From contig DASPQC010000009.1 of NCBI GenBank assembly GCA_035625165.1, positions 9,791 through 73,790 of the forward strand: a stretch of 64,000 nucleotides of DNA, read 5' to 3'. Source of the stretch: Thermoplasmata archaeon (GTDB lineage: Archaea > Thermoplasmatota > Thermoplasmata > Lutacidiplasmatales > UBA184). The position numbers and the translations under genes were made by a program. Below, piece by piece: positions 8,858 to 62,088 of this stretch (the first letter of the stretch is position 1; every line of letters starts with the position of its first letter). A model generated the notes under the pieces. That model made no database searches, was not told the DNA's origin, and saw only the letters and a list, made by a program, of their open reading frames with translations.

Positions 8858-10162
8858 TCACGGCGTGTGGCGGGAAGGGGTGCGCGGGAACGGCGTCGTC
8901 TCCCGAATGTGGTCGCGGCGGAGCATCCACCGGAGGAGGCGTTCGATTCCGAGGCCGAAGCCGGCGTGCGGGACGTTCCCGTGACGTCGCAGGTCGAGGT
9001 ACCACTCGTACTCCTTCACGTCGGCGCCGATCTCGCGGATCCGTTCGGTGAGCCGCGGGATGTCGGTCTCACGGCAGGACGCCCCGACGACCTCGCCGTA
9101 CCCCTCGGGAGCGAGGAGGTCGGCGGCCTCGACCGTCCGAGGGTCGTCCGGCGAGCGGAGCATGTAGAACGCCTTGAGCTCCCGCGGAAAGTGGGTGAGG
9201 AACATCGGGGTCTTTTCCTCGAGTGTCAACGCCCGCTCCTCGGCCGTGCCGAGGTCGCTCCCCCAGTGGACGGAAAGGCCCGCGGCCTGCAACCGCTCGA
9301 TCGCCTTCGCGTAGGTAAGGCGCGGGAATGGCGGTTGGATCGCGAGCAGCTCCGCGGGAGGGCGGCCGAGCTGAGCGAGCTCGTTCGGCCGGCGCTCGGC
9401 GACCGTGTGGAGGACGGTCGCGAACATCCGCTCCGTGAACTCGAGGAGATGGTCGAAGTCGCACCACGCGAGCTCCACCTCGAGGTTCAGGAACTCGGTC
9501 AGGTGACGGGGCGTGCGCGACTTCTCTGCACGGAACGACGGGGTGAGCGCCCAGACCCGTTCGTGGGGGAAGAGGAGCGCTTCGAGGTAGAGCTGCGCCG
9601 TCTGGGAGAGGTAGCCCGGGCGGCCGAAGTAGTCGATCTGGAACGCCTCCGCCCCGCCCTCCGCCGCGTTCCCCGAGAGGATCGGGGGCGTCATCTCGAG
9701 GATGTCCTCGCGGTCGAAGAACTCGCGGAACGCGCGGAGCACCTCCGCCTTCACGCGGAAGGTCGCGACGTGTTCCTGGGAGCGAATGGCGAGGTGGCGC
9801 ATGTCGAGGCGGAACTCCTCCGTTTGCTCCGCGAAGATCGGGAATGGCTCGCCGGCGTCGACCACCGTGATGGTGGTCGCTCGCACCTCCCGCCCCCCGG
9901 GCGCGCGCCGGTCCTCGGCGACCGTCCCCTCGACCCAGACCGCCCCTTCGACCTGCACGTGCTCGGCCGCGTCGAACGCGGCGTCGCCGAGCGCGTCCCG
10001 ACGGGCGGTCACTTGGATGACGCCGGTCCGGTCGCGGAGGACGACGAACAGGATCCCTCCCGACGACCGGGAGCGGAGCACCCAGCCCCTCAGTCGGACG
10101 GAGACGCCCATCGCGTCGGGCGCGAACGCCCGCTGGATCGGGTCGAATTCGGGGGCCGTCAC
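8858..10162 (-). CDS. asnS: Asparagine--tRNA ligase (class IIb)
   Basis: 'SFRAEKSRTPRHLTEF', 'GYGEVVGASCRE', 'YEWYLDLRRHGNVPHAGFGLGIERLLRW' and 'FPRTPSR' are present. The YEWYLDLRR block is AsnRS-type rather than AspRS-type. Start set at GTG 10162 (GTGA overlap with the tfs stop, giving 434 aa), with ATG 10189 as the alternative. The 593-aa track ORF is an upstream read-through. Confidence 0.85.
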   Translation of the reverse strand: MTAPEFDPIQRAFAPDAMGVSVRLRGWVLRSRSSGGILFVVLRDRTGVIQVTARRDALGDAAFDAAEHVQVEGAVWVEGTVAEDRRAPGGREVRATTITVVDAGEPFPIFAEQTEEFRLDMRHLAIRSQEHVATFRVKAEVLRAFREFFDREDILEMTPPILSGNAAEGGAEAFQIDYFGRPGYLSQTAQLYLEALLFPHERVWALTPSFRAEKSRTPRHLTEFLNLEVELAWCDFDHLLEFTERMFATVLHTVAERRPNELAQLGRPPAELLAIQPPFPRLTYAKAIERLQAAGLSVHWGSDLGTAEERALTLEEKTPMFLTHFPRELKAFYMLRSPDDPRTVEAADLLAPEGYGEVVGASCRETDIPRLTERIREIGADVKEYEWYLDLRRHGNVPHAGFGLGIERLLRWMLRRDHIRETTPFPRTPSRHTP

Positions 10163-51440: not shown

Positions 51441-51602
51441 ATGGGAAAGGGAACACCGGCCCGACGTGGAGGGAAGATCGTCCACGTCATCTGCCGCCGG
51501 TGCGGCCGCCACTCGTACCACCGGCAGAAGAAGGTCTGCGCCTCCTGCGGGTTCGGCGCGAACTCCCGCCGCCGCGGCTACGACTGGGCGAAGCTGAGGT
51601 AG
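51441..51602 (+). CDS. rpl37e: 50S ribosomal protein L37e
   Basis: Not in the ORF track because it is under 60 aa. My translation is MGKGTPARRGGKIVHVICRRCGRHSYHRQKKVCASCGFGANSRRRGYDWAKLR, with the C4 zinc knuckle typical of L37e. The Sm-L37e linkage is typical of archaea. Confidence 0.9.
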   Translation: MGKGTPARRGGKIVHVICRRCGRHSYHRQKKVCASCGFGANSRRRGYDWAKLR

Positions 51603-52185
51603 GCGGACGCCCCGGCCGGGGCCGCGAGACGGAAGGCTCATCTCGGATCGCAAAGCGGAGCGGGCGCTCGACCGCCTGACGGATTCCGACCCGCGGGCCG
51701 ACCACGACCGCCCGCGGCCGGCGTCCCCGCGCGAGCACCATCACCCGGCGGTCTCGGGTCGCATCTCGCCCGTCGTCCGAGAGGGTGAGGCCGAGGTGGC
51801 GGCAGAGGCGCCCCGGGCCGCTCGTTCTCCCATCGGCCCCGAGGTTCGGGGTTCCGGCTCGGAGGAGGACGGCTTCGCCGCAGCGGGTGACGAGGTTCGC
51901 GCAAACGACCTGATGGATCTGGAAGACGTAGAGGGTCCCCGGTCGGCCGAACATCGAGCGGTTGCGCCGGGTCGGACCCCGGAACGCGTGGCTCGCCGGA
52001 TCTCCGCGGACGTACGCCTCCGTCTCGGAGAGGAGCACCGACCGTTCCTCCGCGCCGTCCCGCACGACCAGCGTCGTGCCGAGCAGCGCCCGCGCGACGC
52101 GGACCGTCGGACGGTCGAAGAACGACCGACCGAGCCGACGTCGCGGCTCAGAGGATCTTCCCTCGGTCGACCAGCGGTCGGCCAT
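51487..52185 (-). CDS. mpg: DNA-3-methyladenine glycosylase (AAG/Mpg family)
   Basis: 'FFDRPTVRVARALLG' and 'ETEAYVRGDPASHAFRGPTRRNRSMFGRPGTLYVFQIHQ'. The last ~44 aa form an Arg/Ser/Gly-rich tail that is antisense to rpl37e. Confidence 0.8.
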   Translation of the reverse strand: MADRWSTEGRSSEPRRRLGRSFFDRPTVRVARALLGTTLVVRDGAEERSVLLSETEAYVRGDPASHAFRGPTRRNRSMFGRPGTLYVFQIHQVVCANLVTRCGEAVLLRAGTPNLGADGRTSGPGRLCRHLGLTLSDDGRDATRDRRVMVLARGRRPRAVVVGPRVGIRQAVERPLRFAIRDEPSVSRPRPGRPPTSASPSRSRGGGSSRRTRRRRRPSSAGGTSGGRTGGR

Positions 52186-53257
52186 CGACCGCGACCGTCG
52201 CCTCCCCGACCGTGATCCAGGAAAGGAAGCGGCACCGGTTCCGCCCCCCGTAGTGGGTGTTTCCTCCGATCGCGACCGTGACGGTTCCGGCCGGCTGGTC
52301 CTCGGCCTGGGGGACCGACCGGTCGAGCGCGTCGTTCAGACCGAGCGCGACCAGCCCCACCGTCTCCCGGCCGCGCGGGGCGGCGGCGAACTCCTCGTCG
52401 AACGCCTCCCCCCCGTCGGTGTACCAGTAGTTGCGAAGGCGGCCCCCCTCGAGCTCCCATTGGGCCCCTTCGACCCGGCCCGGCCGAAGGAAGCTCGGTC
52501 GGTTGGAGACGGCCACCCCGGTCGCCGAATGCTCGTCGACGGCGACCACGACCGACCCGGCGGGAGCGGTCGCCACGACCTGGCCCCGGCGGCGGTCCTC
52601 GGCGTCGACCTGGCCGTCGTCCACCCACGGGGTCCGCCCCCGCAGACGAAAACGGACGTCCGTGCCGTTCCCGGCCTGCAGGTGCAGCTCGCGGCCCCGG
52701 GCCAGCAGGCGGGCCGCCTTCGCCCCGTTCGCCTTGAGCTCGCCGTAGTCCACCTGGGTGATACCGCGGACGAGCTGGCTCCGCCAGAGCGCCCCCGGGA
52801 CCGCCCAGTGTTCGGCCTGCGCATCCGAAGCGTACCCGAGGAGGCAGCGGACCGCTCGCAGGCCGGTCGCCCGCGCCCGGCGGAGCCACTCGTCTTCCGC
52901 GCCCAGGAACGGGGACTGGAGCTGGGGCGGGAGCGCGTGCAGGCGGGGCCGGTCGGCTGGTCCGGGAAAGTAGAGGAAGGCATCGGCGTGCCGTAACGCG
53001 GAGCGAGCGGGCGACGAGAGTCGGGCCCAGCTCCGCGGAGAGACGGCGGTGTCGAGACTGTGCCAGAAGGCGCCCTCGTCCTCGAGGAGGAGGAGCGGAC
53101 GGGCGCCGATGCGGCGGGATTCGGCGACCAGGGCGCTCGCCCACGGGAGCGTGTGGTTCCAGGTCGAGACGACCAGATGTTCCCCCCGACGCAGGGAGAG
53201 CGCGCTCCCGACCAGGGCGCGAGCGACGGCCGTCGGGGTCCCCCCGTCCGCGGGCAC
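52148..53257 (-). CDS. M29 (AmpS/aminopeptidase T)-like protein
   Basis: The overall layout and blocks 'HLVVSTWNHTLPWASALV' and 'GTVTVAIGGN' resemble thermophilic aminopeptidases. Several expected metal-ligand positions look substituted by eye. Confidence 0.5.
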   Translation of the reverse strand: MPADGGTPTAVARALVGSALSLRRGEHLVVSTWNHTLPWASALVAESRRIGARPLLLLEDEGAFWHSLDTAVSPRSWARLSSPARSALRHADAFLYFPGPADRPRLHALPPQLQSPFLGAEDEWLRRARATGLRAVRCLLGYASDAQAEHWAVPGALWRSQLVRGITQVDYGELKANGAKAARLLARGRELHLQAGNGTDVRFRLRGRTPWVDDGQVDAEDRRRGQVVATAPAGSVVVAVDEHSATGVAVSNRPSFLRPGRVEGAQWELEGGRLRNYWYTDGGEAFDEEFAAAPRGRETVGLVALGLNDALDRSVPQAEDQPAGTVTVAIGGNTHYGGRNRCRFLSWITVGEATVAVDGRPLVDRGKIL

Positions 53258-53344: not shown

Positions 53345-54055
53345 ATGCAGCGGCCGGTGCCGGAGGAGCTGGGGACGTTCTCGATCGTCGCGTCGGACGT
53401 CGAGCGGGGTTTCTGGGGGGTGGCCGTCTCCACCCACCCGATCTCGGTCGGGGCGACCGTCCCCTGGGCGGAATGGAGGGTGGGGGCGATCGCGACCCAG
53501 GCCCTCTCCAATTACGGATACGGCCCGGAGGGACTCTCCCTCCTCCGCCGCGGGCTCTCGGCTCCCGAGGTCGTCCGCCGGCTGACCGACGCGGACCGGA
53601 AGCGAGAGCACCGGCAGCTCGCGGTCGTCGACCGACGCGGAAGGGTGGCGGCGTGGACGGGGAAGAAATGCCTCGACTCCGCGCTCCACATCACGGGGGA
53701 GGGTTTCTCCTGCCAGGGGAACCTTCTCGCGAGCGACGACGTGGTGAAGGCGATGGCCCGAAACTTCGAGGCGAGCCGCGGTTCGCTCGACCTCCGCCTG
53801 TTCGGCGCGGTCGAGGCGGGCCTCCGGGCGGGTGGGGACCGGCGCGGAGTCCAGTCCGCGGCGCTCGTGGTCGTACACCGCGAGCCGTGGTTCGACCGTG
53901 CCTCAAGCGACCGGTGGACGGACCTTCGGGTTGACCAGCACCCACGACCGGTCGCCGAGCTCGGGAGGATCCTCCGGATCGACCACGAGCTCACGCGAAA
54001 GTTCCTGAGAGCCCGGACAGCCCGGCTACGGCGTCGGCGCCGAGCGAGAGGCTGA
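53345..54055 (+). CDS. DUF1028-family (Ntn-hydrolase-like) protein
   Basis: 'GTFSIVASDVERGFWGVAVSTHPISVGATVPWAEWRVGAIATQALSN' is typical of DUF1028. Start at ATG 53345. Confidence 0.6.
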   Translation: MQRPVPEELGTFSIVASDVERGFWGVAVSTHPISVGATVPWAEWRVGAIATQALSNYGYGPEGLSLLRRGLSAPEVVRRLTDADRKREHRQLAVVDRRGRVAAWTGKKCLDSALHITGEGFSCQGNLLASDDVVKAMARNFEASRGSLDLRLFGAVEAGLRAGGDRRGVQSAALVVVHREPWFDRASSDRWTDLRVDQHPRPVAELGRILRIDHELTRKFLRARTARLRRRRRARG

Positions 54056-55336
54056 GCGACGGACTCCGGCCGCCCCGGTGAGGACGGCGTGGGAGCGGAG
54101 GGACCGCACGATCTTCTGGGACGAGGCCCCGGACCGAGCCAGCCGACGGGCCGTGCGGACGATCAGTCGTCCGGCGTCGTCGAATGGAGGGGCGAACGCC
54201 GGTCGGACGAATGGCGAGGGAAAGTTCCTCCACGCACCCTTTCGAACCGCGGCACGCCGGACCACCTCTCGAACCCGGCGGGCACGGGAGAAATCCCTGA
54301 GGTCCCGCAGCAGCTCCTCGGAGACCCCGTTCGCCCGGCCCGCGCGGACGAGGGCGAGGAGCTTCTCGGGTCGATGGCGACGCGCTGCCCCGCCGCGGCC
54401 GAGGACCCCGTTGAAGTAGAGGAACGGCCCCCGCACCTCGAGCGCCTCGAGCAGCGTGCGGCTCCCGGTCACGACCCGGACGGAGGCTTCCCGGAACCGG
54501 AGGCTCCACGCGGGGGACGGTTGGGGACCCTGGGTCAGCTCGACCCACTCCTCGTCCGGTCGGTACCGCCAAGGACGCGGGGAGCGGATCGTGAGGTGCA
54601 CTTTCCGGCCCGACTCCTTGAGCCCGCGGACGACTGCAGGAGCGATCCGCTCCGCGCTCGCGGGGCTCGCGTACCAGACCCACGATTCCTGTTCCCGAGA
54701 GGTGCCGCGCGGACTGGGTCGGAACCGCCTGGACCAGAGCGGCCCCGTCTGGACCGCTTCGGGCATCTCGCGGGCGAACGAGGAGTCCGGCGCGAACGTC
54801 GCAAAGAGGTGGAGCACGTTCGGACGGTCGAACGCGCGAAACTCCCGGAACGCGGCTCGGAATCGCTCGACGTCCCCGGCGGCGCGCGACTGCTTCCCGC
54901 GGCGGGAAAGCGCCCGGGCCCGGACCCCGCCCTCCCTCAGGCGTTCAAGGTTCTCCCGGCGGACGGTGAGCGTACGGGCGAACTCCTCGAGGCTCAGATG
55001 GAGCGTGCGGTCGGAGCCGTACGTCCGCTCGATATCGCTGGCCTCGTGGGCCCAGGGGCCCTCCCGCCCTAGTGGCCCGGGACGGCCGGGCGCAGCGTTG
55101 AGGCCGAACGCCGGGGAGACGGTGAGCGCCGCCGCGGCCCGAGGGTGAAGCGCGTGGGTCCGCCGGAGCGCCGGCCACGCCCACGGTCCGTCCACCCCTC
55201 GCGGGAGCGGCCGCCCCGGGCGGCGGTAGAGCTCGACCCGAAAGCCGGCCCGACGAAGTGCGCGACCAGCGGCGAGCACCTCCTCGATGTCCCCGAGCCC
55301 GCCTCCGACCACGGCCGGGAAGAGGTAGACGTCCAC
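54026..55336 (-). CDS. Hypothetical 436-aa protein (possibly GT-B-like fold)
   Basis: N-terminal 'VDVYLFPAVVGGGLGDIEEVLAAGRALRRAGFRVELY' resembles a Gly-rich glycosyltransferase N-terminus. No family recognised. GTG 55336 was chosen to avoid overlapping the upstream GNAT. Confidence 0.5.
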   Translation of the reverse strand: MDVYLFPAVVGGGLGDIEEVLAAGRALRRAGFRVELYRRPGRPLPRGVDGPWAWPALRRTHALHPRAAAALTVSPAFGLNAAPGRPGPLGREGPWAHEASDIERTYGSDRTLHLSLEEFARTLTVRRENLERLREGGVRARALSRRGKQSRAAGDVERFRAAFREFRAFDRPNVLHLFATFAPDSSFAREMPEAVQTGPLWSRRFRPSPRGTSREQESWVWYASPASAERIAPAVVRGLKESGRKVHLTIRSPRPWRYRPDEEWVELTQGPQPSPAWSLRFREASVRVVTGSRTLLEALEVRGPFLYFNGVLGRGGAARRHRPEKLLALVRAGRANGVSEELLRDLRDFSRARRVREVVRRAAVRKGAWRNFPSPFVRPAFAPPFDDAGRLIVRTARRLARSGASSQKIVRSLRSHAVLTGAAGVRRSASRSAPTP

Positions 55337-55358
55337 GCCGCCCCGTGGCGGCGGCCGT

Positions 55359-56294
55359 TCACCCGACGGGCCGGTAGAGCGTCGAGACCGAGATGGCATG
55401 GTGGAACCCGGCCGCCTCGAGGGCGGCCCGCGCCTGGGGTGGTTCGTTCGCGGCCACGCTGACGAGCCGGGGCGCCTTCCGTCCGGCACACCAGGCGGCC
55501 GCGGTCCGCGTGAGCGCGGCGCCGAGGTCGGGGGGCACGGTATCGGAGAGGAGCGGCTCCGAGAGGTGGCCGGCCTCGGTCGCCGCGGTGATCGCCCCCG
55601 AGACGTACCCCTCCGCCCCGTGGCCCCGGTCGATGACCCACGCGGCGACCTCCGTCGCCATCGCGTGGTTCAAGCGGGGGGACGGGCGGAACGAGCTTGG
55701 CGACGCCGGCAGAACCTCCTGGACGGCGGCTGGAACGGTTCGCTGCGAGACCCCGAGGAGGACCCCCGCGTCGGCCGCGGCGAACGGGCGGACCTGCGGT
55801 GGAGGAACGAACGGGAGGAGCGAGACGGGCCGGTCGTGGACATAGAGGCCCGTTCCGCGGAGGCGACGGTATCCGGCGGAGTCGTAGAGATGCACGGCCC
55901 GGGAGTTCGAGTCGAGCACGTCCAGCACCACGTAGGGCCGCCCTCGCCGGGCGGTGATCGCGCGGGCCTCCTCGAGGAGGCGCCGCGCGAGGCCGCGCCC
56001 TCGGTAGGCCGGGTCGACCACGACCATCGCGAGGTAGCCGGCGCGCGGCGTGAACGAGACCATCGTGGTCCCGACGATCTGGCCGTCCGCTTCGAAGACC
56101 AGGAAGCGGAACGGCGACCGACCCAGCAGACGCGCGAGCGCGAGGAGGAGGCGGGTGTCCCAGCGGAAGGCACGGGAGACGATCCTCTCGAACCCTTCCG
56201 GACGGGTGCCGAGGAGCGCCTCTTCCTCAGGGAACTCCCGGGTGAGGAACGTGAACACCCGTTCGGTGTCGCCCCGACGGAGGTCGCGGAGCAT
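55359..56294 (-). CDS. Two-domain GNAT-family acetyltransferase
   Basis: First domain 'YLAMVVVDPAYRGRGLARRLLEEA' (acetyl-CoA motif), followed by a second GNAT-like half. The ATG shares 1 nt with the HEAT-protein stop. Confidence 0.7.
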   Translation of the reverse strand: MLRDLRRGDTERVFTFLTREFPEEEALLGTRPEGFERIVSRAFRWDTRLLLALARLLGRSPFRFLVFEADGQIVGTTMVSFTPRAGYLAMVVVDPAYRGRGLARRLLEEARAITARRGRPYVVLDVLDSNSRAVHLYDSAGYRRLRGTGLYVHDRPVSLLPFVPPPQVRPFAAADAGVLLGVSQRTVPAAVQEVLPASPSSFRPSPRLNHAMATEVAAWVIDRGHGAEGYVSGAITAATEAGHLSEPLLSDTVPPDLGAALTRTAAAWCAGRKAPRLVSVAANEPPQARAALEAAGFHHAISVSTLYRPVG

Positions 56295-57778
56295 CAGGCC
56301 TCTTCGTCGTCGGTCGAGGCGAAGAGGGCGCCCTCCAGGAGCGACCTCAAGGTCGGAGGGCCGCGCTCGGGGGTGAGCTCGGGTGGCGGGAGACGGGCGG
56401 CCCGGTCGAGGTCATCCTCCTCGAGGCCCTCGCGGGCGTCCCGAAGCGCCCGGTGGATGAGCGCGTCGGGGGAGTGCTCGCAGAGACGACCGAGCGCCTG
56501 GACGGTGGCGTCGAACAGGCGGCTCTCCGCGTCCGATTGAAGCGGCTCCTCCGAGCCCCCGGCGTCGGTGGCGGCCATCGAGTCGGCCCGGGTCGGACGG
56601 AACTGGTAGAGCAGGCGGACGAGCTCCTCGCGCGCCCCATCGTCCCCGAGCCGACCGAGGGCCCAGACGGCGGCGAGACGCACCTCCGCGGCCGGGTCGT
56701 CGAGCTCGTCGCGAATCCGCGGCGCGGCCTCGGAGAGACCGAGTCGGCCGAGGGCGTAGATCGCTCCTCGCCGCGGCCACGCGTGCGGGTCGCGAAGGGT
56801 GGTGAGCAACGCAGGGAGGTCGTCCGGCGACCCGACCGCGCCGAGCGCCACCGCGGCGGCTCCCCGGACCGACCAGGAAGGGTCGCCGAGGTGGGCGAGC
56901 GCGACCGTCCGCGCCTCGGGGGCCTTCATGTCGGCGAGGGCATGGACCGCGCAGGTCCGAACCCATCGGGCCGGGTGCTCGGCGGAGGCGACCAAGGAGG
57001 GCACGGCCGACGGGTCCCCGATCCGGCCGAGGGCGACGAGGACCGCGGGTTTTTCCCAGCTCTTCGGGGAGGCGAGGAGCTCGAGGAGCCGGGGGACGCT
57101 TTCGCGGTCGCGCACGCGACCGGCGACCACCGCGGCCGCGACCCGGACCCGGGCCGACGGGTCGTGAAGGAATCCGCGGAGCCGCTCCATCGTCCGGTCG
57201 TCCGCGGCGTGGCCGACCGCGAGCACCGCCACCCGGCGGACCCGGTCGACCGGATCGGCGAGGGCCGCTTCGGCCTCCGACCGCGCGGCTGGGGTAGCGA
57301 TCTGCCCGAGGGCGATGACGACCGCCTGGCGGACCTCCCAGACCGGGTCGTCCCGCCGGGCCGCGAGCGCCGTCACCGACTCCGGCGGAGCGAGGGACGC
57401 GAGGGCGAACGCCGCCTTGCACCGGACGGAAGCGTCCGGGTCGGAGAGCGACCGCTCGAGTTCGAGCCGGCTCTCGGGCCGGCCGACCGCCCCGAGCGCC
57501 TCCACGGCGGCGCGCCGCACTCCGGCCTCGGGGTCGGTCAGCGCCGCGCTGAGCGCGCTCCGGGCCCTCGGGTCCTTGAGCATCCCGAGCGCGATCGCCG
57601 CCGTCTGGCGGACACCCGCGACCGGGTCGCTGAGCGCGACGAGGAGCGGCCCCAGGTCGGGGACGACCCCCCGGCGGACCGCCTCCCGGATCTCCGCAGC
57701 CCGCCGGGCGGGCGAGTCGACCGCCGGCGCGGGGTCCGAGGGGCGACGGCGGGCGCGCGGGGCCATCGTGGAACCCAC
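56294..57778 (-). CDS. HEAT-repeat (PBS-lyase-like) protein
   Basis: At least 10 repeats of the form 'D..VR..A..ALG.....A...L...L.D' across 494 aa. Confidence 0.75.
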   Translation of the reverse strand: MGSTMAPRARRRPSDPAPAVDSPARRAAEIREAVRRGVVPDLGPLLVALSDPVAGVRQTAAIALGMLKDPRARSALSAALTDPEAGVRRAAVEALGAVGRPESRLELERSLSDPDASVRCKAAFALASLAPPESVTALAARRDDPVWEVRQAVVIALGQIATPAARSEAEAALADPVDRVRRVAVLAVGHAADDRTMERLRGFLHDPSARVRVAAAVVAGRVRDRESVPRLLELLASPKSWEKPAVLVALGRIGDPSAVPSLVASAEHPARWVRTCAVHALADMKAPEARTVALAHLGDPSWSVRGAAAVALGAVGSPDDLPALLTTLRDPHAWPRRGAIYALGRLGLSEAAPRIRDELDDPAAEVRLAAVWALGRLGDDGAREELVRLLYQFRPTRADSMAATDAGGSEEPLQSDAESRLFDATVQALGRLCEHSPDALIHRALRDAREGLEEDDLDRAARLPPPELTPERGPPTLRSLLEGALFASTDDEEA

Positions 57779-57789
57779 CGAGAGGGTGA

Positions 57790-60126
57790 CTAAACGTTAC
57801 CGCCGCTCGCCGCTGTCGCGAGGAGGGCGCGCTGGGCCCGGCTCTCGGGGGAGCGGTACCGCTCGCGGGCCGGGGGGTCGGCGACCCTCCATCGCCCGAG
57901 GAGCTCCTCGCGTCGGACACCGAGCGGGGCGAGGAGGGTCTCCGCCGCGCGGGCGAGGATCTCGAGGTAGGCGTCGACGTCGTACCGCTCGTCGCCCGTC
58001 AAGAGCTCCGCCGCCCGGACCCGGCCGCGCCACGAACGGCTCCGCCGGTCGAGGAGGACGAACCGCACGGCCTCGCCGGCATCGCGGACCGCCCCGGCCT
58101 CCGCGAGCTGGCGGAGCGCCGCGACCGAGTCGGTGAACGTGACGAACGCCTCCGGTGCCTGGCCGATCCGGTGGTCGATCAGGAGCTCCTCGACCGGCCA
58201 GCCTCCCTCCCGGAGCCGCGCGGCGAACAGGTCGGCCCGGGCCAGGGCGCGGGGCAGGAGGGCCCGGATCCCTTCGGCGTCCCGCGCGCTCCGGAAGAGG
58301 GCGAGGACCTCCCCCTCGAAGCGGCGGACGAGCTCGGTCGTGTCGTGGCGTCGGGCGCCGATCCCACGCAGCTTGAACTCCCCGTGTTCGTAGAGGCCGT
58401 AGTAGCGGTTCGGGACGCCGAGGCCGTGGGTCACCGCCGGCAGGAAGACGACCCAGCGGTACCGCCCCTCGTAGCCGAGCGGGAGGTCGAAGCGGGCGCT
58501 CATCCGCTCCGCGAACGCCACCGGGTCGGGCGGGTGCGCCGGGTCGGTCGGCGCGAGCCAGAGCGAGTCGACGATCCCGTGGACGACCGAGTAGCCGGCC
58601 CGCTCCGCCTCCGGCAGGAGGTCGGCCAAGAGCGCGCGGGCGTAGGCGTTGATCGCTTCGTGGCACTCGATCCGGCCGAACCGGGCGTTGCGGTACCCTT
58701 GGTAACCGAAGGCGGTGACGAGGACCCATTTCAGCATCTTCACCCGCCGCTTCAGGCGGGCCTCCTCGTCGGCCGGGAGCCCCGGCCGCTTGAGCGCCGC
58801 CTTGTAGGCGAGGCGACGGGCGAGGAGCGGGGCGAGCGTCCGCGGGATGAGCCCGACCCGGCGGAGGCACGACCGGTAGCCGAGCCCCGGCGCTACGACC
58901 GGGCTCTTCGGGCAGCAGCGGCAGTCGAGCGTCTCCGCCGAGAGGTTCTTGCGGACCATGATGTGCGGGTAGAGGCTCGCGAAGTCGAACTCGTCGATCC
59001 GGTCGAAGACGCCGACCGGCGGGAGGAAGATTACCCCGCCGCGGTCGGCCCGGACGAGGTGGTCGGCCCGACGGAACCCCTCGGGCCGGTTCTTCTTCCA
59101 CGGGACGTGGGCCCCGAGGCGGAGCGCCGTCGCCATCTCCATCGCGGTGAAGCAGGTCCCGGGCGACTGGCGGACGACCGTCTGGAGCGAGAGGCGGGAG
59201 AGGCGGGCGGCGTCCACGAGGCCGGCGATCGAGGCGTCATCGAACAGGAACGAGTTCCCCCGGTCGACGTGGAACCGCCCGGGGACCGGATAGCTCGCGT
59301 CGCGGTGGAGGACGCGGCCGTACGACTCGAACGAGCGCGCCGGCCGCGACGGGCGGAACGCGACCGCCTCCCGGCCGAGGACGAACTCCTCGGGGGGGAG
59401 GCCCACCGCGGCCGCCCGCCGGTAGAGCCAGGGAAGGTCGAACGAATCGCCGCCGTCGGTCAGGAGGACGTCCGGGTCGGCGCGCGCGAGCTCATCGACC
59501 AGGGCGCGGAGGAGCTCCGTCTCGGGCCCCTCCAGGGTCGCTTCCCCGAGCCGCACCGACCCCAGGCGACCGTCCGGCGGCGGGATGCGGCCCCGTCGCT
59601 CTCCCGCGACCCGCACCTCGAGGGGAGCGACCGTGAGGGGCGGGGTCGGGTAGTCGACCGTCTCCGCCGGCTCGGTCGCGGCGAGCGCCGCGCCGTGACC
59701 GACCACCGGGGCGAACGGGAAGAGCCCGTGGGTGAGATGGTAGAGCTGCGGCGGGGTCAGGTCGACGTCGTAGAGGGTGAACCGCCCGTAGCCGCCGAGC
59801 GCATCGACCGCCCGGGCGAGCGACCGGCGCGCCGCGTTCCGCGCGGGGACGACCGTGAGGACCGGCCGCGCGCGACGGTCGAAGAGCGAGGGGCGGCCGC
59901 TCCCGAGCTCGACCGAGGCGACGTCCGGTCGCTCGCGGAGCGTGCGGGCGAGCGAAGCGAGCTCCTCCCTCGGCCCCTCGAGGAGGAACGGCGGACGGTA
60001 CTCGACCGCGGTCCGCCGGACGCGGCCGGTCCGGCGCTCCTTCACCCAGAGGACGACCGAGCGTCCGTCCGCGCTCTCGGTGATGTCGAGAAGCCAGCCG
60101 TCGGGCGTCGGGGAGGCTCCGTCCAC
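57790..60126 (-). CDS. polB: Family B DNA polymerase, divergent motifs
   Basis: Exo II 'GGDSFDLPWLYRRA', motif A 'DFASLYPHIM', motif B-like 'KWVLVTAFGYQGYRNARFG' and motif C-like 'VVHGIVDSLW' in a 778-aa protein. Confidence 0.9.
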   Translation of the reverse strand: MDGASPTPDGWLLDITESADGRSVVLWVKERRTGRVRRTAVEYRPPFLLEGPREELASLARTLRERPDVASVELGSGRPSLFDRRARPVLTVVPARNAARRSLARAVDALGGYGRFTLYDVDLTPPQLYHLTHGLFPFAPVVGHGAALAATEPAETVDYPTPPLTVAPLEVRVAGERRGRIPPPDGRLGSVRLGEATLEGPETELLRALVDELARADPDVLLTDGGDSFDLPWLYRRAAAVGLPPEEFVLGREAVAFRPSRPARSFESYGRVLHRDASYPVPGRFHVDRGNSFLFDDASIAGLVDAARLSRLSLQTVVRQSPGTCFTAMEMATALRLGAHVPWKKNRPEGFRRADHLVRADRGGVIFLPPVGVFDRIDEFDFASLYPHIMVRKNLSAETLDCRCCPKSPVVAPGLGYRSCLRRVGLIPRTLAPLLARRLAYKAALKRPGLPADEEARLKRRVKMLKWVLVTAFGYQGYRNARFGRIECHEAINAYARALLADLLPEAERAGYSVVHGIVDSLWLAPTDPAHPPDPVAFAERMSARFDLPLGYEGRYRWVVFLPAVTHGLGVPNRYYGLYEHGEFKLRGIGARRHDTTELVRRFEGEVLALFRSARDAEGIRALLPRALARADLFAARLREGGWPVEELLIDHRIGQAPEAFVTFTDSVAALRQLAEAGAVRDAGEAVRFVLLDRRSRSWRGRVRAAELLTGDERYDVDAYLEILARAAETLLAPLGVRREELLGRWRVADPPARERYRSPESRAQRALLATAASGGNV

Positions 60127-60133
60127 GGCCGGC

Positions 60134-60343
60134 CTAGTGGCGGACGCGGGCCGTCGCGGGCTCCGAGGGGAGCCGACGCGCGAGGTCGGTGAGGACGGAG
60201 AGGAGGATCGATTCCAGAAGGTCCGGGCTCCCGACGTACGTCGCCTGGGCGACGTACCGCCGCGCCCCCGTCCGGACGAGGTCGAAGGCGGCCCGCTCCT
60301 CGGGCGTCGTGAGGAGCCGCGCGAATTCGTCCCAGCGTTTCAT
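60134..60343 (-). CDS. Small (69 aa) helical hypothetical protein
   Basis: The ATG overlaps the stop of the RadA-like gene (ATGA), and the ORF ends 7 nt before the polB ATG. Codons are GC3-rich. No family recognised. Confidence 0.45.
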   Translation of the reverse strand: MKRWDEFARLLTTPEERAAFDLVRTGARRYVAQATYVGSPDLLESILLSVLTDLARRLPSEPATARVRH

Positions 60344-61212
60344 CCGCTCCTCGAGCGCCTGACGGTACGTCGGGGCGGTACGTCCCACGCGATCACCTCC
60401 TCGGCGGCCGACCGGCCGCCAAACTCCTCCATCCCCCGCTGGCCGGGAGCGCGCGGGACGAACGCGAGCCGGGCGTCGTCCCGGAGCGCCCGGGCCCGGA
60501 GCGCGACCGGCCCCCGTTCGAAGTAGACCAGGTCGGCCCAACGCAGCCCCTCCTCCGCGAGGCCCGAGAACCGCTCGAGGACCCCCGGCCCGAGCGTCAG
60601 GAGGAGCGGGACCGGGACGTCGTGGAGGAGCGCGCCCAAGGTCCGGGCGACGTGACGGAGGAGGGCCTCCCGCTCGTCGGCCGGCACCTCGTCGTCCAGG
60701 AAGAGGGTGGGGAGGTCGTGGCCGACGAGGAGCGTGGGGGGATGGCGGCGGACCTCGCGGGCCCACGCCTCCACGAGCGCGACCATCTGGTAGGCCGTGA
60801 ACGCCCGAGCGATGCGGATCCGCCGGAGCGTCTCGGTCGCGTCGACCCCGAGCGAGCGGCCGAGCTCCCCCACGCGGTACGGATGGAACCGGTTGGCCCC
60901 CTCGAGGAGGGAGAGGCGACCGCGGGCGACCGCGTTCCCCGCGTAGACCATCTCGAGGATCGGTTCCACCGCGACCTTGGGGCCGCACCAGAGAGTTGCC
61001 TCGCCCGGGCGGAACCGGGCAGCGAGCCAGGGGAAGAGCGCCGGCGCGGAGGGAAGGCACGGGGACGGGCGGGCTCTCGAGCGGCGGGGCGCGAGGCGGA
61101 GACGGAGGCCGGGGACCGACGGAGCGAGCGACGGCTCCTCGGGCCGGAACGGCTCGAAGAGGAGCGCATCCTCCGGCGGGAGCGTGGGCTCCACCGTGAA
61201 CGTCTCGGTCAT
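60340..61212 (-). CDS. RadA/RadB-like RecA-fold protein lacking a Walker A motif
   Basis: 'RIRIARAFTAYQMVALVE' matches the RadA block ..aRAyNsdHQm.. and 'PTLLVGHDLPTLF' is Walker B-like. At the Walker A position the sequence is 'LWCGPKVAVEPILEM'. Confidence 0.65.
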   Translation of the reverse strand: MTETFTVEPTLPPEDALLFEPFRPEEPSLAPSVPGLRLRLAPRRSRARPSPCLPSAPALFPWLAARFRPGEATLWCGPKVAVEPILEMVYAGNAVARGRLSLLEGANRFHPYRVGELGRSLGVDATETLRRIRIARAFTAYQMVALVEAWAREVRRHPPTLLVGHDLPTLFLDDEVPADEREALLRHVARTLGALLHDVPVPLLLTLGPGVLERFSGLAEEGLRWADLVYFERGPVALRARALRDDARLAFVPRAPGQRGMEEFGGRSAAEEVIAWDVPPRRTVRRSRSG

Positions 61213-61323
61213 CGTCCTCGACCGGTCGCCTCTAGGCGCCCGGCCGCTCTAAAGCGGCGGTTCGGGAGACGTTGAAACGGCCCGGGAACGGGGCGTTTCC
61301 GTGGGACCGGCGCGGAGGCGCGG

Positions 61324-62088
61324 CTAGTCGAGCCGGGAACGGGTCGCCGGAGGGGCGAGCCCGAGGAGCTCCGAGAGCGAACGGCAGTTCACGGCCGCGT
61401 CCCCGCGGAAGTGGTTGTTGAAGAACCCGTAGACCACGGACGCTTCCTCCGCGAGCGACCGGATCCGAGGCGCCCACGCCGAGATCTCGGCGGCCGAATA
61501 GGTGTAGTCGTACCAGGTCGGCGAGCCGTGGCCGTGCCAGCGAACGTAACTGAAGGGAGCGGTCACGTCGGTCGCGACCGGAAGGTGCGGTCCGTCCACG
61601 ATCACGTTCGCGAGCCCGAACTCCCGGAGCAGTGCGTACGATTCGGGGACGAGCCAAGACCGATCGCGGAACTCGACCGCGACCGGAAGGTCCTTCGGAA
61701 GCGTCTCGTAGAACGCCCGCACGGTACCGGGCTCGAACGGCAGGGAGGGGGGAAGTTGGAGGAGCCCGGCCGCGAACCGCCCGGCGTCCCGCAACGGGCG
61801 GACGACCGCGAGGAACCGGTGGAGCTCCTCGTCCGCGTTCACGAGCCGGAGGTCGTGGGTGATCGACTGGGGGAACTTCGCCGCGAACCGGAACTTGGGC
61901 GGCGTGCGCCGGACCCAGGACGCCGCGACCGACGGCGGGGGAAGCCGGTAGAACGTCGAGTTGACCTCGACGATCGGGAAGAGGCCGGCGTAGTAGTGCA
62001 GCCGGTCCGAGACGCCGCGCGGCGGGTAGACCTTGCCGACCCACTCGGGGTAGTCCCAGCCGCTGGTGCCGAGGACGACCTCGCCCAT
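61324..62088 (-). CDS. DUF72-family protein
   Basis: 'VVLGTSGWDYPEWVGKVYP' and 'VEVNSTFYRLP' are typical of DUF72. Confidence 0.8.
   Translation of the reverse strand: MGEVVLGTSGWDYPEWVGKVYPPRGVSDRLHYYAGLFPIVEVNSTFYRLPPPSVAASWVRRTPPKFRFAAKFPQSITHDLRLVNADEELHRFLAVVRPLRDAGRFAAGLLQLPPSLPFEPGTVRAFYETLPKDLPVAVEFRDRSWLVPESYALLREFGLANVIVDGPHLPVATDVTAPFSYVRWHGHGSPTWYDYTYSAAEISAWAPRIRSLAEEASVVYGFFNNHFRGDAAVNCRSLSELLGLAPPATRSRLD

Follow-up and report, generated by a model that had tools for sequence, protein, structure and literature searches.

A PolB2 mutasome operon and an adjoining, probably separately promoted HEAT, tandem-GNAT, and GT-B-like gene module in Thermoplasmata

Contig DASPQC010000009.1 of a Thermoplasmata archaeon (lineage UBA184; GenBank assembly GCA_035625165.1) carries six closely packed minus-strand genes within the 64,000-nucleotide stretch analyzed here (positions 9,791 to 73,790 of the forward strand; hereafter, the window). 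In the order in which they are read, they encode an inactivated RadA paralog (iRadA), the small protein PPB2, a family B DNA polymerase of the PolB2 (Dpo2) type, a HEAT-repeat protein, a tandem-GNAT acetyltransferase, and a protein with a predicted GT-B glycosyltransferase fold (Table 1). A first-pass annotation made from the sequence alone had reported six minus-strand genes with minimal spacing, and direct reading of the sequence reproduces both their positions and their junctions: iRadA overlaps the small open reading frame (ORF) as first drawn by 4 nt (ATGA, 60340-60343), PPB2 and PolB2 are 7 nt apart, the HEAT and GNAT genes share 1 nt (TGATG, at 56294), 22 nt separate GNAT from the GT-B gene, and the spacer between iRadA and the upstream DUF72 gene is 111 nt. 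That the six genes constitute an operon is an inference. Four of the noted gene starts are kept, and those of a 69-aa ORF (now PPB2) and of the HEAT gene are revised on the strength of independent gene calls and orthologs; the HEAT start at 57778 is probably four codons too early, the likely ATG (MAPRAR...) lying at 57766, which leaves 23 nt between PolB2 and HEAT. The DNA of the locus is 70 to 75% GC, and when judged against that composition, five of the six frames pass a codon-position-bias filter for real genes, with a G+C fraction at third codon positions (GC3) of 0.90 to 0.95; the 436-aa frame is backed instead by an independent gene call and by homologs. The domains named at first pass are likewise recovered with Pfam and NCBIfam (a weak Rad51 match, DNA_pol_B, HEAT_2, and GNAT), with no Pfam family for the sixth protein, and Rfam and tRNA scans gave no match within or near the cluster. 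In relatives, the co-directional block runs on with M29-like and MPG genes, from which it is cut off in the window by a DUF1028 gene.

Table 1. Genes and sequence elements at the locus (window coordinates)
Feature	Position	Strand	Size	Basis or remark
MPG/AAG methylpurine-DNA glycosylase	51487..52185	-		Pur_DNA_glyco, E 1e-42; last gene of conserved block
M29-like (aminopeptidase T / NicX-like)	52148..53257	-		Peptidase_M29, E 1e-9
DUF1028 gene	53345..54055	+		Pfam DUF1028, E 4e-71; gene call
GT-B fold glycosyltransferase-like protein	54026..55336	-	436 aa	AlphaFold2, Foldseek
Tandem-GNAT acetyltransferase	55359..56294	-	311 aa	Pfam, AlphaFold2, Foldseek
HEAT-repeat protein	56294..57766	-	490 aa	HEAT_2, gene call, orthologs
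TATA-like TTTAGT over PolB2 stop codon	57789..57794	-		23-28 nt before HEAT ATG; cross-locus conservation
PolB2, Dpo2-type B-family DNA polymerase	57790..60126	-	778 aa	NCBIfam, motifs, catalogued homolog
PPB2 (arCOG07300 type), start GTG 60388	60134..60388	-	84 aa	Shine-Dalgarno, gene call, conserved N terminus
Shine-Dalgarno GGAGGTGATC for PPB2, inside iRadA coding sequence	60391..60400	-	10 nt	Read from sequence; perfect
iRadA, inactivated RadA/Rad51 paralog	60340..61212	-	290 aa	Pfam, PDB alignment, motifs
Conserved promoter element, GTTTCAAC-N16-CTTTAGAG	61247..61278	-	32 nt	Cross-locus conservation
DUF72 (UVDE-like TIM barrel), separate upstream gene	61324..62088	-		Pfam DUF72, E 2e-64

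The first gene encodes a RadA-family protein in which the ATPase residues have been lost. Its match to Pfam Rad51 falls below the cutoff (E 1e-3), and RadA ATPase cores in the PDB align over residues 97-200 only (E 7e-6). The P-loop position reads GPKVAVEP, with GxxxxGK[ST] absent from the sequence, and the Walker B position reads LLVGHD instead of LLIVDS, with His at the Asp position; the first-pass description of a RadA paralog lacking Walker A is thus borne out and extends to Walker B. The first ~50 residues are poorly conserved among orthologs, from which we infer that there is no N-terminal helix-hairpin-helix domain, and a RadA-core fold that has lost both its ATPase residues and its N-terminal domain is what characterizes iRadA. 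Near the C terminus is a motif resembling a PCNA-interacting peptide, QRGMEEFG (residues 262-269), which is conserved among orthologs as QRG(M/I)EEFG. It resembles QSHLEAFG and QLRLEAFG, two listed PCNA motifs of Thermoplasmata iRadA proteins, and is thus a candidate clamp-binding motif.

The second gene is longer than the 69-aa ORF first drawn. Its start lies 45 nt farther upstream, at a GTG codon preceded by two nt and a perfect Shine-Dalgarno sequence (GGAGGTGATC), so that it overlaps the 3' end of iRadA by 49 nt. The iRadA residues overlying the Shine-Dalgarno sequence (A-E-E-V-I) are conserved in orthologs, and the strong conservation of the iRadA C-terminal tail is attributable to this dual-coding overlap. 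The revised N terminus, MGRTAPTYRQ (DNA reading MGRTAPTYRQALEERMKRW...), contains the MGRT motif with Arg3 and Arg9, and it is at least 90% conserved and nearly invariant across ~58 species, with the protein as a whole being 74 to 97% identical between species. Independent gene calls give 84 aa on a matching ENA contig and 84 to 90 aa in relatives. These calls carry a precomputed Pfam match to PF26485 (DUF8156), which is the sole source of that assignment, no model having been matched in a local Pfam scan of the 84-aa protein. At the level of sequence, the size, the MGRT arm, and the two arginines are those of PPB2. Automated or by-eye annotation, by overlooking the internal GTG, easily cuts off this functionally critical arm.

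The polymerase matches the NCBIfam 'type B DNA polymerase' models NF004418 and NF004416 at E 1e-118 and 1e-104, with three 'DNA-directed DNA polymerase I' equivalog models reaching E 1e-33 or weaker, ~70 to 85 orders of magnitude behind. Motif A is intact (DFASLYP). Motif C, the counterpart in alignments of SDTDGFF in Thermococcales PolB, reads HGIVDSLWL, with IVD for DTD; the same 9-mer is tabulated for many catalogued PolB2 enzymes, and most members of the PolB2 group have the leading Asp of this DxD replaced. The N-terminal half (residues 10-406) is 34% identical to the catalogued PolB2 of Thermoplasmata archaeon M9B2D (E 4e-79), whereas solved PolB3 enzymes in the PDB align only from residue ~200-290 onward. 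The exonuclease Pfam domain is detectable over just 42 residues (202-243; E 1e-3, below the cutoff), and in sequence alignments the ExoII NGDNFD position reads GGDSFD and the ExoI DxE is not alignable. We judge it very improbable that the enzyme is a replicative PolB3 of the ordinary kind, in a cluster serving replication and not damage tolerance. The protein does match Pfam DNA_pol_B and Thermococcales PolB in the PDB (E 4e-35), and a check of the window's ten largest remaining ORFs for PolB3 or PolD turned up no second polymerase, although a 64-kb window cannot show that either is absent from the genome; these ORFs encode CarB, GyrA, an archaeosine TGT-like protein, a DEAD helicase, Ppx/GppA, ALDH, PurD, UbiD, an RDD/DUF1614 protein, and one protein without an assignment. 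Against this, the first catalytic Asp of motif C is replaced, the exonuclease domain falls below the Pfam threshold, where a replicative PolB3 would have DTD and ExoI-III intact, a catalogued PolB2 aligns from much nearer the N terminus than PolB3 enzymes do, and the gene sits with iRadA and PPB2. The grouping with standard PolB3 that the first-pass annotation had named as a possible outcome is therefore not what we see, motif C being IVD and not DTD.

The first-pass annotation knew of no described PolB operon containing a HEAT-repeat protein and a pseudo-RadA. As regards the pseudo-RadA, this is incorrect: such operons have been in the literature since 2013-2014, and 1,823 of them were analyzed in 2025. 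The iRadA-PPB2-PolB2 operon is widespread in archaea and has been passed to bacteria too (Makarova, Krupovic & Koonin 2014, PMC4104785; Timinskas, Timinskas & Venclovas 2025, PMC11791011). This published order is class 1a, PPB2 is a helical ~90-aa protein (arCOG07300), and AlphaFold models predict a PolB2-iRadA-PPB2x3 assembly (PMC11791011). The locus described here shares with it the three families, their order, and their placement on one strand, along with IVD in motif C, an iRadA without Walker A and B, a PPB2 of ~85-90 aa with an MGRT arm, a PIP-like Qxx[LIM]ExFG motif near the iRadA C terminus, and DUF72 nearby, an enriched PolB2 neighbor (PMC11791011); Thermoplasmata members of the same layout are already catalogued. 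Judged from these sequence features, the first three genes are a class-1a PolB2 operon and a new member of a known system. What differs is that HEAT, tandem-GNAT, and GT-B genes (with M29 and MPG in relatives) follow without a real spacer, an arrangement that is undescribed, that a clade-specific conserved promoter element is present, and that no orc1/cdc6 or SRAP gene lies beside the triad in the gene calls of the window contig and its relatives. HEAT is outside the 20 commonest PolB2 neighbor domains, and GNAT occurs in 59 of the 1,823 neighborhoods, where it is listed and not discussed (PMC11791011). The finding is thus largely explained by the PolB2 mutasome already described, to whose core it adds a member and not a concept.

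Conservation was assessed by scanning one genome per species. A GT-B relative was found in 136 genomes, of which the best 80 loci were kept (GT-B identity 50 to 64%), and all loci were searched by tblastn with ten window proteins; the fractions given refer to loci with enough flank. Apart from two generic labels ('bacterium' and 'Thermoplasmatota archaeon'), the 80 are from metagenome-assembled genomes (MAGs) of Thermoplasmata living in acid soils and peat, UBA184 and Ca. Lutacidiplasma silvani among them. Upstream, PolB2 is found in the same orientation in all 56 loci with flank, the full block iRadA-PPB2-PolB2-HEAT-GNAT-GT-B-M29-MPG is present in 45, and downstream, MPG follows in all 76 loci and M29 in 67 of the 76. 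The gene order noted in one genome is conserved across this clade, and the block is kept down to 44% GT-B identity. The median junctions from iRadA through MPG are -49, +2, +22, -4, +13, +24, and -25 nt, those of the triad (56 species loci) comparing with -49 and +7 nt in the window. The same clade also shares a syntenic region of ~20 kb, with V-ATPase F, ferredoxin, and DUF72 on one side and L37e, LSm, GyrA, and S15 on the other, and because the whole region is syntenic, conserved adjacency alone says little.

The A/T-rich box that had been noted upstream of iRadA (61247-61254) is real and conserved, and it forms part of a 32-nt element. A distal box (GTTTCAAC, 61271-61278) is followed by a conserved spacer of 16 nt and the TATA-like CTTTAGAG, which sits in a short palindrome (CCGC-TTTAGA-GCGG) and whose center is ~38 nt before the iRadA ATG. 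The element occurs once in the window and in none of 100 shuffled sequences. In ~1.3 Mb of related loci, a relaxed pattern occurs 50 times, 49 of them directly upstream of iRadA (in 49 of 57 iRadA-bearing loci) and one elsewhere. This distribution suggests that the element, newly described here, is the PolB2 operon's own promoter and specific to that operon. In Sulfolobales, a damage-responsive element, 5'-ANTTTC-3', is bound by Orc1-2, and dpo2 in S. islandicus is Orc1-2 dependent (Sun et al. 2018, PMC6061795). The distal box contains GTTTC and, as in Sulfolobales, stands in the promoter of a PolB2/dpo2 operon. However, where ANTTTC has its defining A, two bases ahead of TTTC, this box has C or T, in the form (C/T)GTTTCAAC at all loci inspected, the box is ~25 nt upstream of the TATA-like sequence and at about -60 to -67 from the ATG (-23 to -55 in Sulfolobales), and there is, as mentioned, no orc1/cdc6 gene nearby. 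With the A missing, the GTTTCAAC box was rejected as a Sulfolobales ANTTTC element; the resemblance is a lead rather than a match and may be due to chance. Being present in dozens of soil and peat Thermoplasmata, the element provides a handle for finding a damage-response regulator outside Sulfolobales.

The gene following PolB2 encodes a long E-Z/PBS-type solenoid with matches to 14 Pfam families of the HEAT_2, HEAT, HEAT_PBS, and HEAT_EZ types, the strongest evidence being HEAT_2 (E 2e-68, seven stretches) and HEAT_PBS (E 7e-27). Two enzymatic identities were considered and rejected. DNA_alkylation is not among the 14 matches, as would be required of an AlkC/AlkD-type glycosylase. Deoxyhypusine hydroxylase is a HEAT-repeat di-iron enzyme with four His-Glu metal-binding motifs in its repeats, and the repeats here read VRxxAAxALG, with no HE pairs. 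At the C terminus (56294-56420, minus strand), there are conserved EELDRxARLPLPE and PPT(L/V)RxLF(E/D)xA(I/L)P segments followed by an acidic tail; the motif resembles a docking peptide, possibly of a clamp-binding-like kind, and it was not seen in the distant ortholog at locus L006.

For the GNAT protein, Pfam Acetyltransf_1 covers residues 45-142 only (E 4e-18), and the AlphaFold2 model (predicted local distance difference test score [pLDDT] 86; predicted template-modeling score [pTM] 0.83) contains two alpha/beta domains. The top Foldseek matches are tandem GNATs, namely VipF, a clavulanate-pathway protein, MAB_4324, and MshD (E 1e-15 to 1e-11, template-modeling [TM] score 0.5-0.68). As in these, one of the two domains carries an R/QxxGxG/A acetyl-CoA motif; R98-x-x-G101-x-A103 in the N-terminal domain is invariant and none was seen in the C-terminal domain, so the protein, as modeled, has two GNAT folds and at least one acetyl-CoA motif. 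By profile, the N-terminal domain is nearest to VipF, RimI, YpeA, Naa10/20/30, and archaeal Ard1. The location of the motif in a RimI/NAT-type N-terminal domain is a difference from MshD, in which the C-terminal domain is the active one, and identity to any solved tandem GNAT is only 14 to 18%.

The last of the six genes encodes a protein without a Pfam match, and PDB sequence searches, including those with GT-B profiles, returned nothing meaningful. Its AlphaFold2 model (pLDDT 91.7, pTM 0.90) has the two-Rossmann-domain architecture of the GT-B fold, and Foldseek matches it to GT1 enzymes (UGT89C1, GtfA, CalG) and to EarP (E 3e-7 to 2e-5, TM 0.4-0.5). The matches to the EarP structures 7cox, 5wxi, and 5wxk have E values of 5e-6 to 2e-5 and target-normalized TM scores of 0.47-0.50, with GT1 enzymes equal or better by E value. 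The family is small, with 84 representatives at 50% identity among 1.84 billion proteins, and every named match is a Thermoplasmata MAG. EarP (PF10093) is the only Pfam family matched by more than one member, although weakly and in 4 of 40 (best E 0.002), and the window protein has no PF10093 match at E 0.1 or below. The GT1 sequence models UDPGT and Glyco_transf_28 do not match the window protein either, and Glyco_transf_28 is matched by 1 of the 40 members (E 0.16). The resemblance to EarP and GT1 is accordingly one of modeled fold, with TM scores of 0.4-0.5 and no family member over any Pfam or PDB sequence threshold. Two stretches are nearly invariant, an N-terminal GxGD loop and VTGSR...PFLYFNG...RxxxEK. 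We take the first (at the beta1 loop, QQGWGD in distant members) to be similar to a GD-containing loop in EarP and GtfA, and what is presumably the position of the EarP sugar-binding motif reads TGSR here. EarP, of family GT104, is an arginine rhamnosyltransferase of elongation factor P (EF-P), and Archaea have aIF5A, not EF-P. More distant relatives (26 to 40% identity) are in unrelated contexts; at L088:7838-9853, L089:6498-8594, and L090:10007-12064, the GT-B gene is followed by an ORF of ~200 aa and does not sit with HEAT and GNAT. This ORF is annotated as DUF998, a membrane protein, in L088 and L089, and DUF998 genes are often found beside such relatives, suggesting a different ancestral partner of the GT-B family. 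A metagenome scan with a distant homolog (P0168) found no relative, and a second scan (A4) found that of L090 only, with GT-B in an unrelated context.

Several observations set the HEAT gene and those following it apart from the triad. A TATA-like sequence overlies the PolB2 stop codon, and 71% of 65 orthologous loci (background, 5%) have an A/T-rich hexamer at -36 to -22 of HEAT, its typical forms being CTTTTAGC and GATATTAG at -31 to -29. A corresponding hexamer precedes M29 in 82% of loci, typically as CCTTAATCG over the GT-B stop codon TAA, whereas the frequency is 0 to 3% before PPB2, PolB2, GNAT, GT-B, and MPG. By established archaeal promoter geometry, this spacing fits leaderless transcripts. 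The last sense codon of PolB2 ends in A or T in 40 of 68 loci, even though the GC3 of PolB2 in the window is 0.95, and A/T-ending last codons with TAG or TAA stops are found exactly at the PolB2-HEAT and GT-B-M29 junctions of genes with a GC3 near 0.9. The junction can also be broken. At L081, PolB2 is separated from HEAT by ABC-permease genes on the opposite strand that take up 2.9 kb, and L013 and L044 have same-strand inserts at this junction. HEAT is missing from L046 and L078, where GNAT follows PolB2 by 70 to 120 nt, and M29 is missing from nine loci. At L006, which represents a sister lineage and has a GT-B that is 35% identical, a minus-strand Fer4/ferredoxin gene is succeeded by HEAT-GNAT-GT-B-M29-MPG-DUF72, and the stretch directly upstream of HEAT contains no PolB2 triad. 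On these grounds, HEAT-GNAT-GT-B is best read as the front half of a separately promoted, clade-specific neighbor module. The first-pass proposal of a damage-tolerance polymerase with accessory subunits thus stands in part: iRadA, PPB2, and PolB2 match the published operon, whereas a role of HEAT, GNAT, and the 436-aa protein as polymerase subunits is unsupported.

We therefore consider it probable that a known PolB2 mutasome triad stands head to tail with a module under its own promoter, but a number of observations weigh against this view. All 56 loci with enough flank have PolB2 and HEAT side by side in the same orientation, with a median gap of 22 nt, and this holds as far as a GT-B identity of 44%; with this invariant adjacency and no room for a classical terminator, some degree of read-through cotranscription is likely. 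As for the run of T residues at the PolB2 stop, it could be a terminator just as well as a TATA box. The block is bracketed by the repair genes DUF72 and MPG, and L044 has an AlkZ-like interstrand-crosslink DNA glycosylase gene between PolB2 and HEAT (L044:6117-7451, plus strand; PF06224, E 8.5e-31), genes that together fit a common repair theme. Finally, no contig of two peat metatranscriptomes spans any gene junction. The two contain 6 to 7% of the sequence words, with contigs over iRadA and the PPB2 start (60332-61019), GT-B (54548-54747), and part of M29, and these genes are thus probably expressed. We note that the AlkZ-like gene of L044 has a start that overlaps the PolB2 stop.

A rival reading takes the six genes (eight in relatives) as one damage-inducible operon, with HEAT, GNAT, GT-B, and M29 supplying the mutasome with accessory or regulatory factors specific to this clade; these might, for example, serve as a scaffold for the complex or modify iRadA, PCNA, or the N-terminal arm of PPB2. 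The invariant adjacency of PolB2 and HEAT, the very short gaps or overlaps at every junction, and the repair genes MPG, DUF72, and (in L044) AlkZ in the same block would all be in keeping with it, as would the similarity of the GNAT N-terminal domain to protein N-terminal acetyltransferases, that of GT-B to the protein-arginine glycosyltransferase EarP (as well as to GT1), and the invariance of Met-Gly-Arg-Thr in the PPB2 arm. We nonetheless think it unlikely, given the conserved TATA-like boxes before HEAT and M29, the opposite-strand genes in L081, the losses of HEAT in two genomes and M29 in nine, and the module without an adjoining triad in L006; moreover, the synteny of the whole region weakens the argument from adjacency, and neither HEAT nor GNAT is a common PolB2 neighbor elsewhere. 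An explanation having nothing to do with DNA is that HEAT-GNAT-GT-B, with or without M29, constitutes a small-molecule pathway (for a sugar-containing thiol, solute, or cofactor, for instance) that neighbors PolB2 by chance. This would be analogous to the logic of MshA/BshA (GT-B) with MshD (tandem GNAT), and MshD, the clavulanate-pathway GNAT, a histidine acetyltransferase, and a glucosamine N-acetyltransferase are among the best fold matches of the GNAT protein, as GT1 natural-product glycosyltransferases and BshA are among those of GT-B; there is also a weak NCBIfam MshD match (E 1e-5), and GT-B relatives occur in nonrepair contexts. However, the block has no MshB/MshC-like or sugar-nucleotide genes, the GT-B TM scores are too low to discriminate between families, and the module keeps MPG in every locus and DUF72 in L006, and so we regard this explanation too as improbable.

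Returning to the reading with two units, the triad would be transcribed from its own promoter, composed of the GTTTCAAC box and then the TTTAGA TATA box, with a short leader, and PPB2 would be translated from the internal GTG using the perfect Shine-Dalgarno sequence within the 3' end of iRadA. By homology with the published models, the products would assemble as PolB2-iRadA-PPB2x3, with the MGRT arm of one PPB2 inserted between PolB2 and iRadA. The complex would probably be tethered to PCNA through the iRadA QRGMEEFG motif and would probably perform error-prone synthesis past lesions without proofreading. PolB2 of Saccharolobus islandicus is genetically needed for damage-induced mutagenesis (cited PolB2/Dpo2 literature), and a parallel has been drawn with the Escherichia coli Pol V mutasome, UmuD'2C-RecA-ATP (PMC11791011). 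In concept, both have an error-prone polymerase that works with a member of the RecA family and with a small accessory protein that forms oligomers, but Pol V is a Y-family enzyme, its RecA is active, and UmuD is activated by self-cleavage, whereas the PolB2 locus gives no sign of an activation step; the two systems are not homologous.

The HEAT module would most likely be transcribed from the promoter over the PolB2 stop codon as a leaderless mRNA, and M29-MPG from a further promoter of their own; some read-through from the PolB2 promoter may occur, and the module may have a role in the damage response. Judging by its domains, the module may acetylate and glycosylate a protein or a small molecule, with the HEAT protein as the scaffold. 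More speculatively, HEAT, GNAT, the EarP/GT1-like GT-B, and M29 could be a protein-modification module of this clade's damage response, trimming, acetylating, or glycosylating a repair or translesion factor, for which the most attractive target would be the PPB2 Met-Gly-Arg-Thr arm, predicted to lie between PolB2 and iRadA. We consider this a long shot, but if true, such a module would switch the PolB2 mutasome on or off, as a functional analogue of the activation of Pol V by conversion of UmuD to UmuD'. More generally, this undescribed block of HEAT, tandem-GNAT, novel GT-B, M29-like, and MPG genes beside PolB2 and DUF72 is a candidate for a new repair-associated activity, with the evidence favoring a separate unit.

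Sequence of the window was also found in peat metagenomes. The depth of metagenome contigs over 57800-59400, the conserved central part of PolB2, is 2 to 5 times that of the flanks, a sign that this part draws matches of at least 95% identity from several related strains. One contig of a DNA run (X1) leaps over 4597 nt, from position 55791 within the GNAT gene to 60389, which immediately precedes the PPB2 start; the joint has nine extra letters and a short side of only 21 nt, and it could be either a strain variant or an assembly chimera.

Some features of the neighboring genes are peculiar to the window or to single relatives. DUF1028 is an insertion found in the window alone among ~90 related loci, with no tblastn match in the others; it converges on GT-B, overlapping its 3' end by ~30 nt, and parts GT-B from M29-MPG. 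MPG overlaps M29 by a median of 25 nt across the clade. In the window, the MPG ORF has a low-complexity, Arg-rich C-terminal extension that runs ~115 nt over the convergent L37e gene (51441-51602, plus strand), and MPG is absent from the ENA gene calls of the matching contig. The distance from DUF72 to iRadA has a median of 181 nt and is often more than 1 kb with other genes between. In L002/L008, a MAG chromosome assembled from long reads, the genes called over DUF72, PPB2, and PolB2 are fragmented or on the opposite strand (L002:3552-7582); the genes are intact in L003, a short-read contig of the same organism, and the broken calls are likely due to assembly frameshift errors. The V-type ATPase A subunit of L002 (L002:14293-17184) contains an intein with a LAGLIDADG endonuclease domain.

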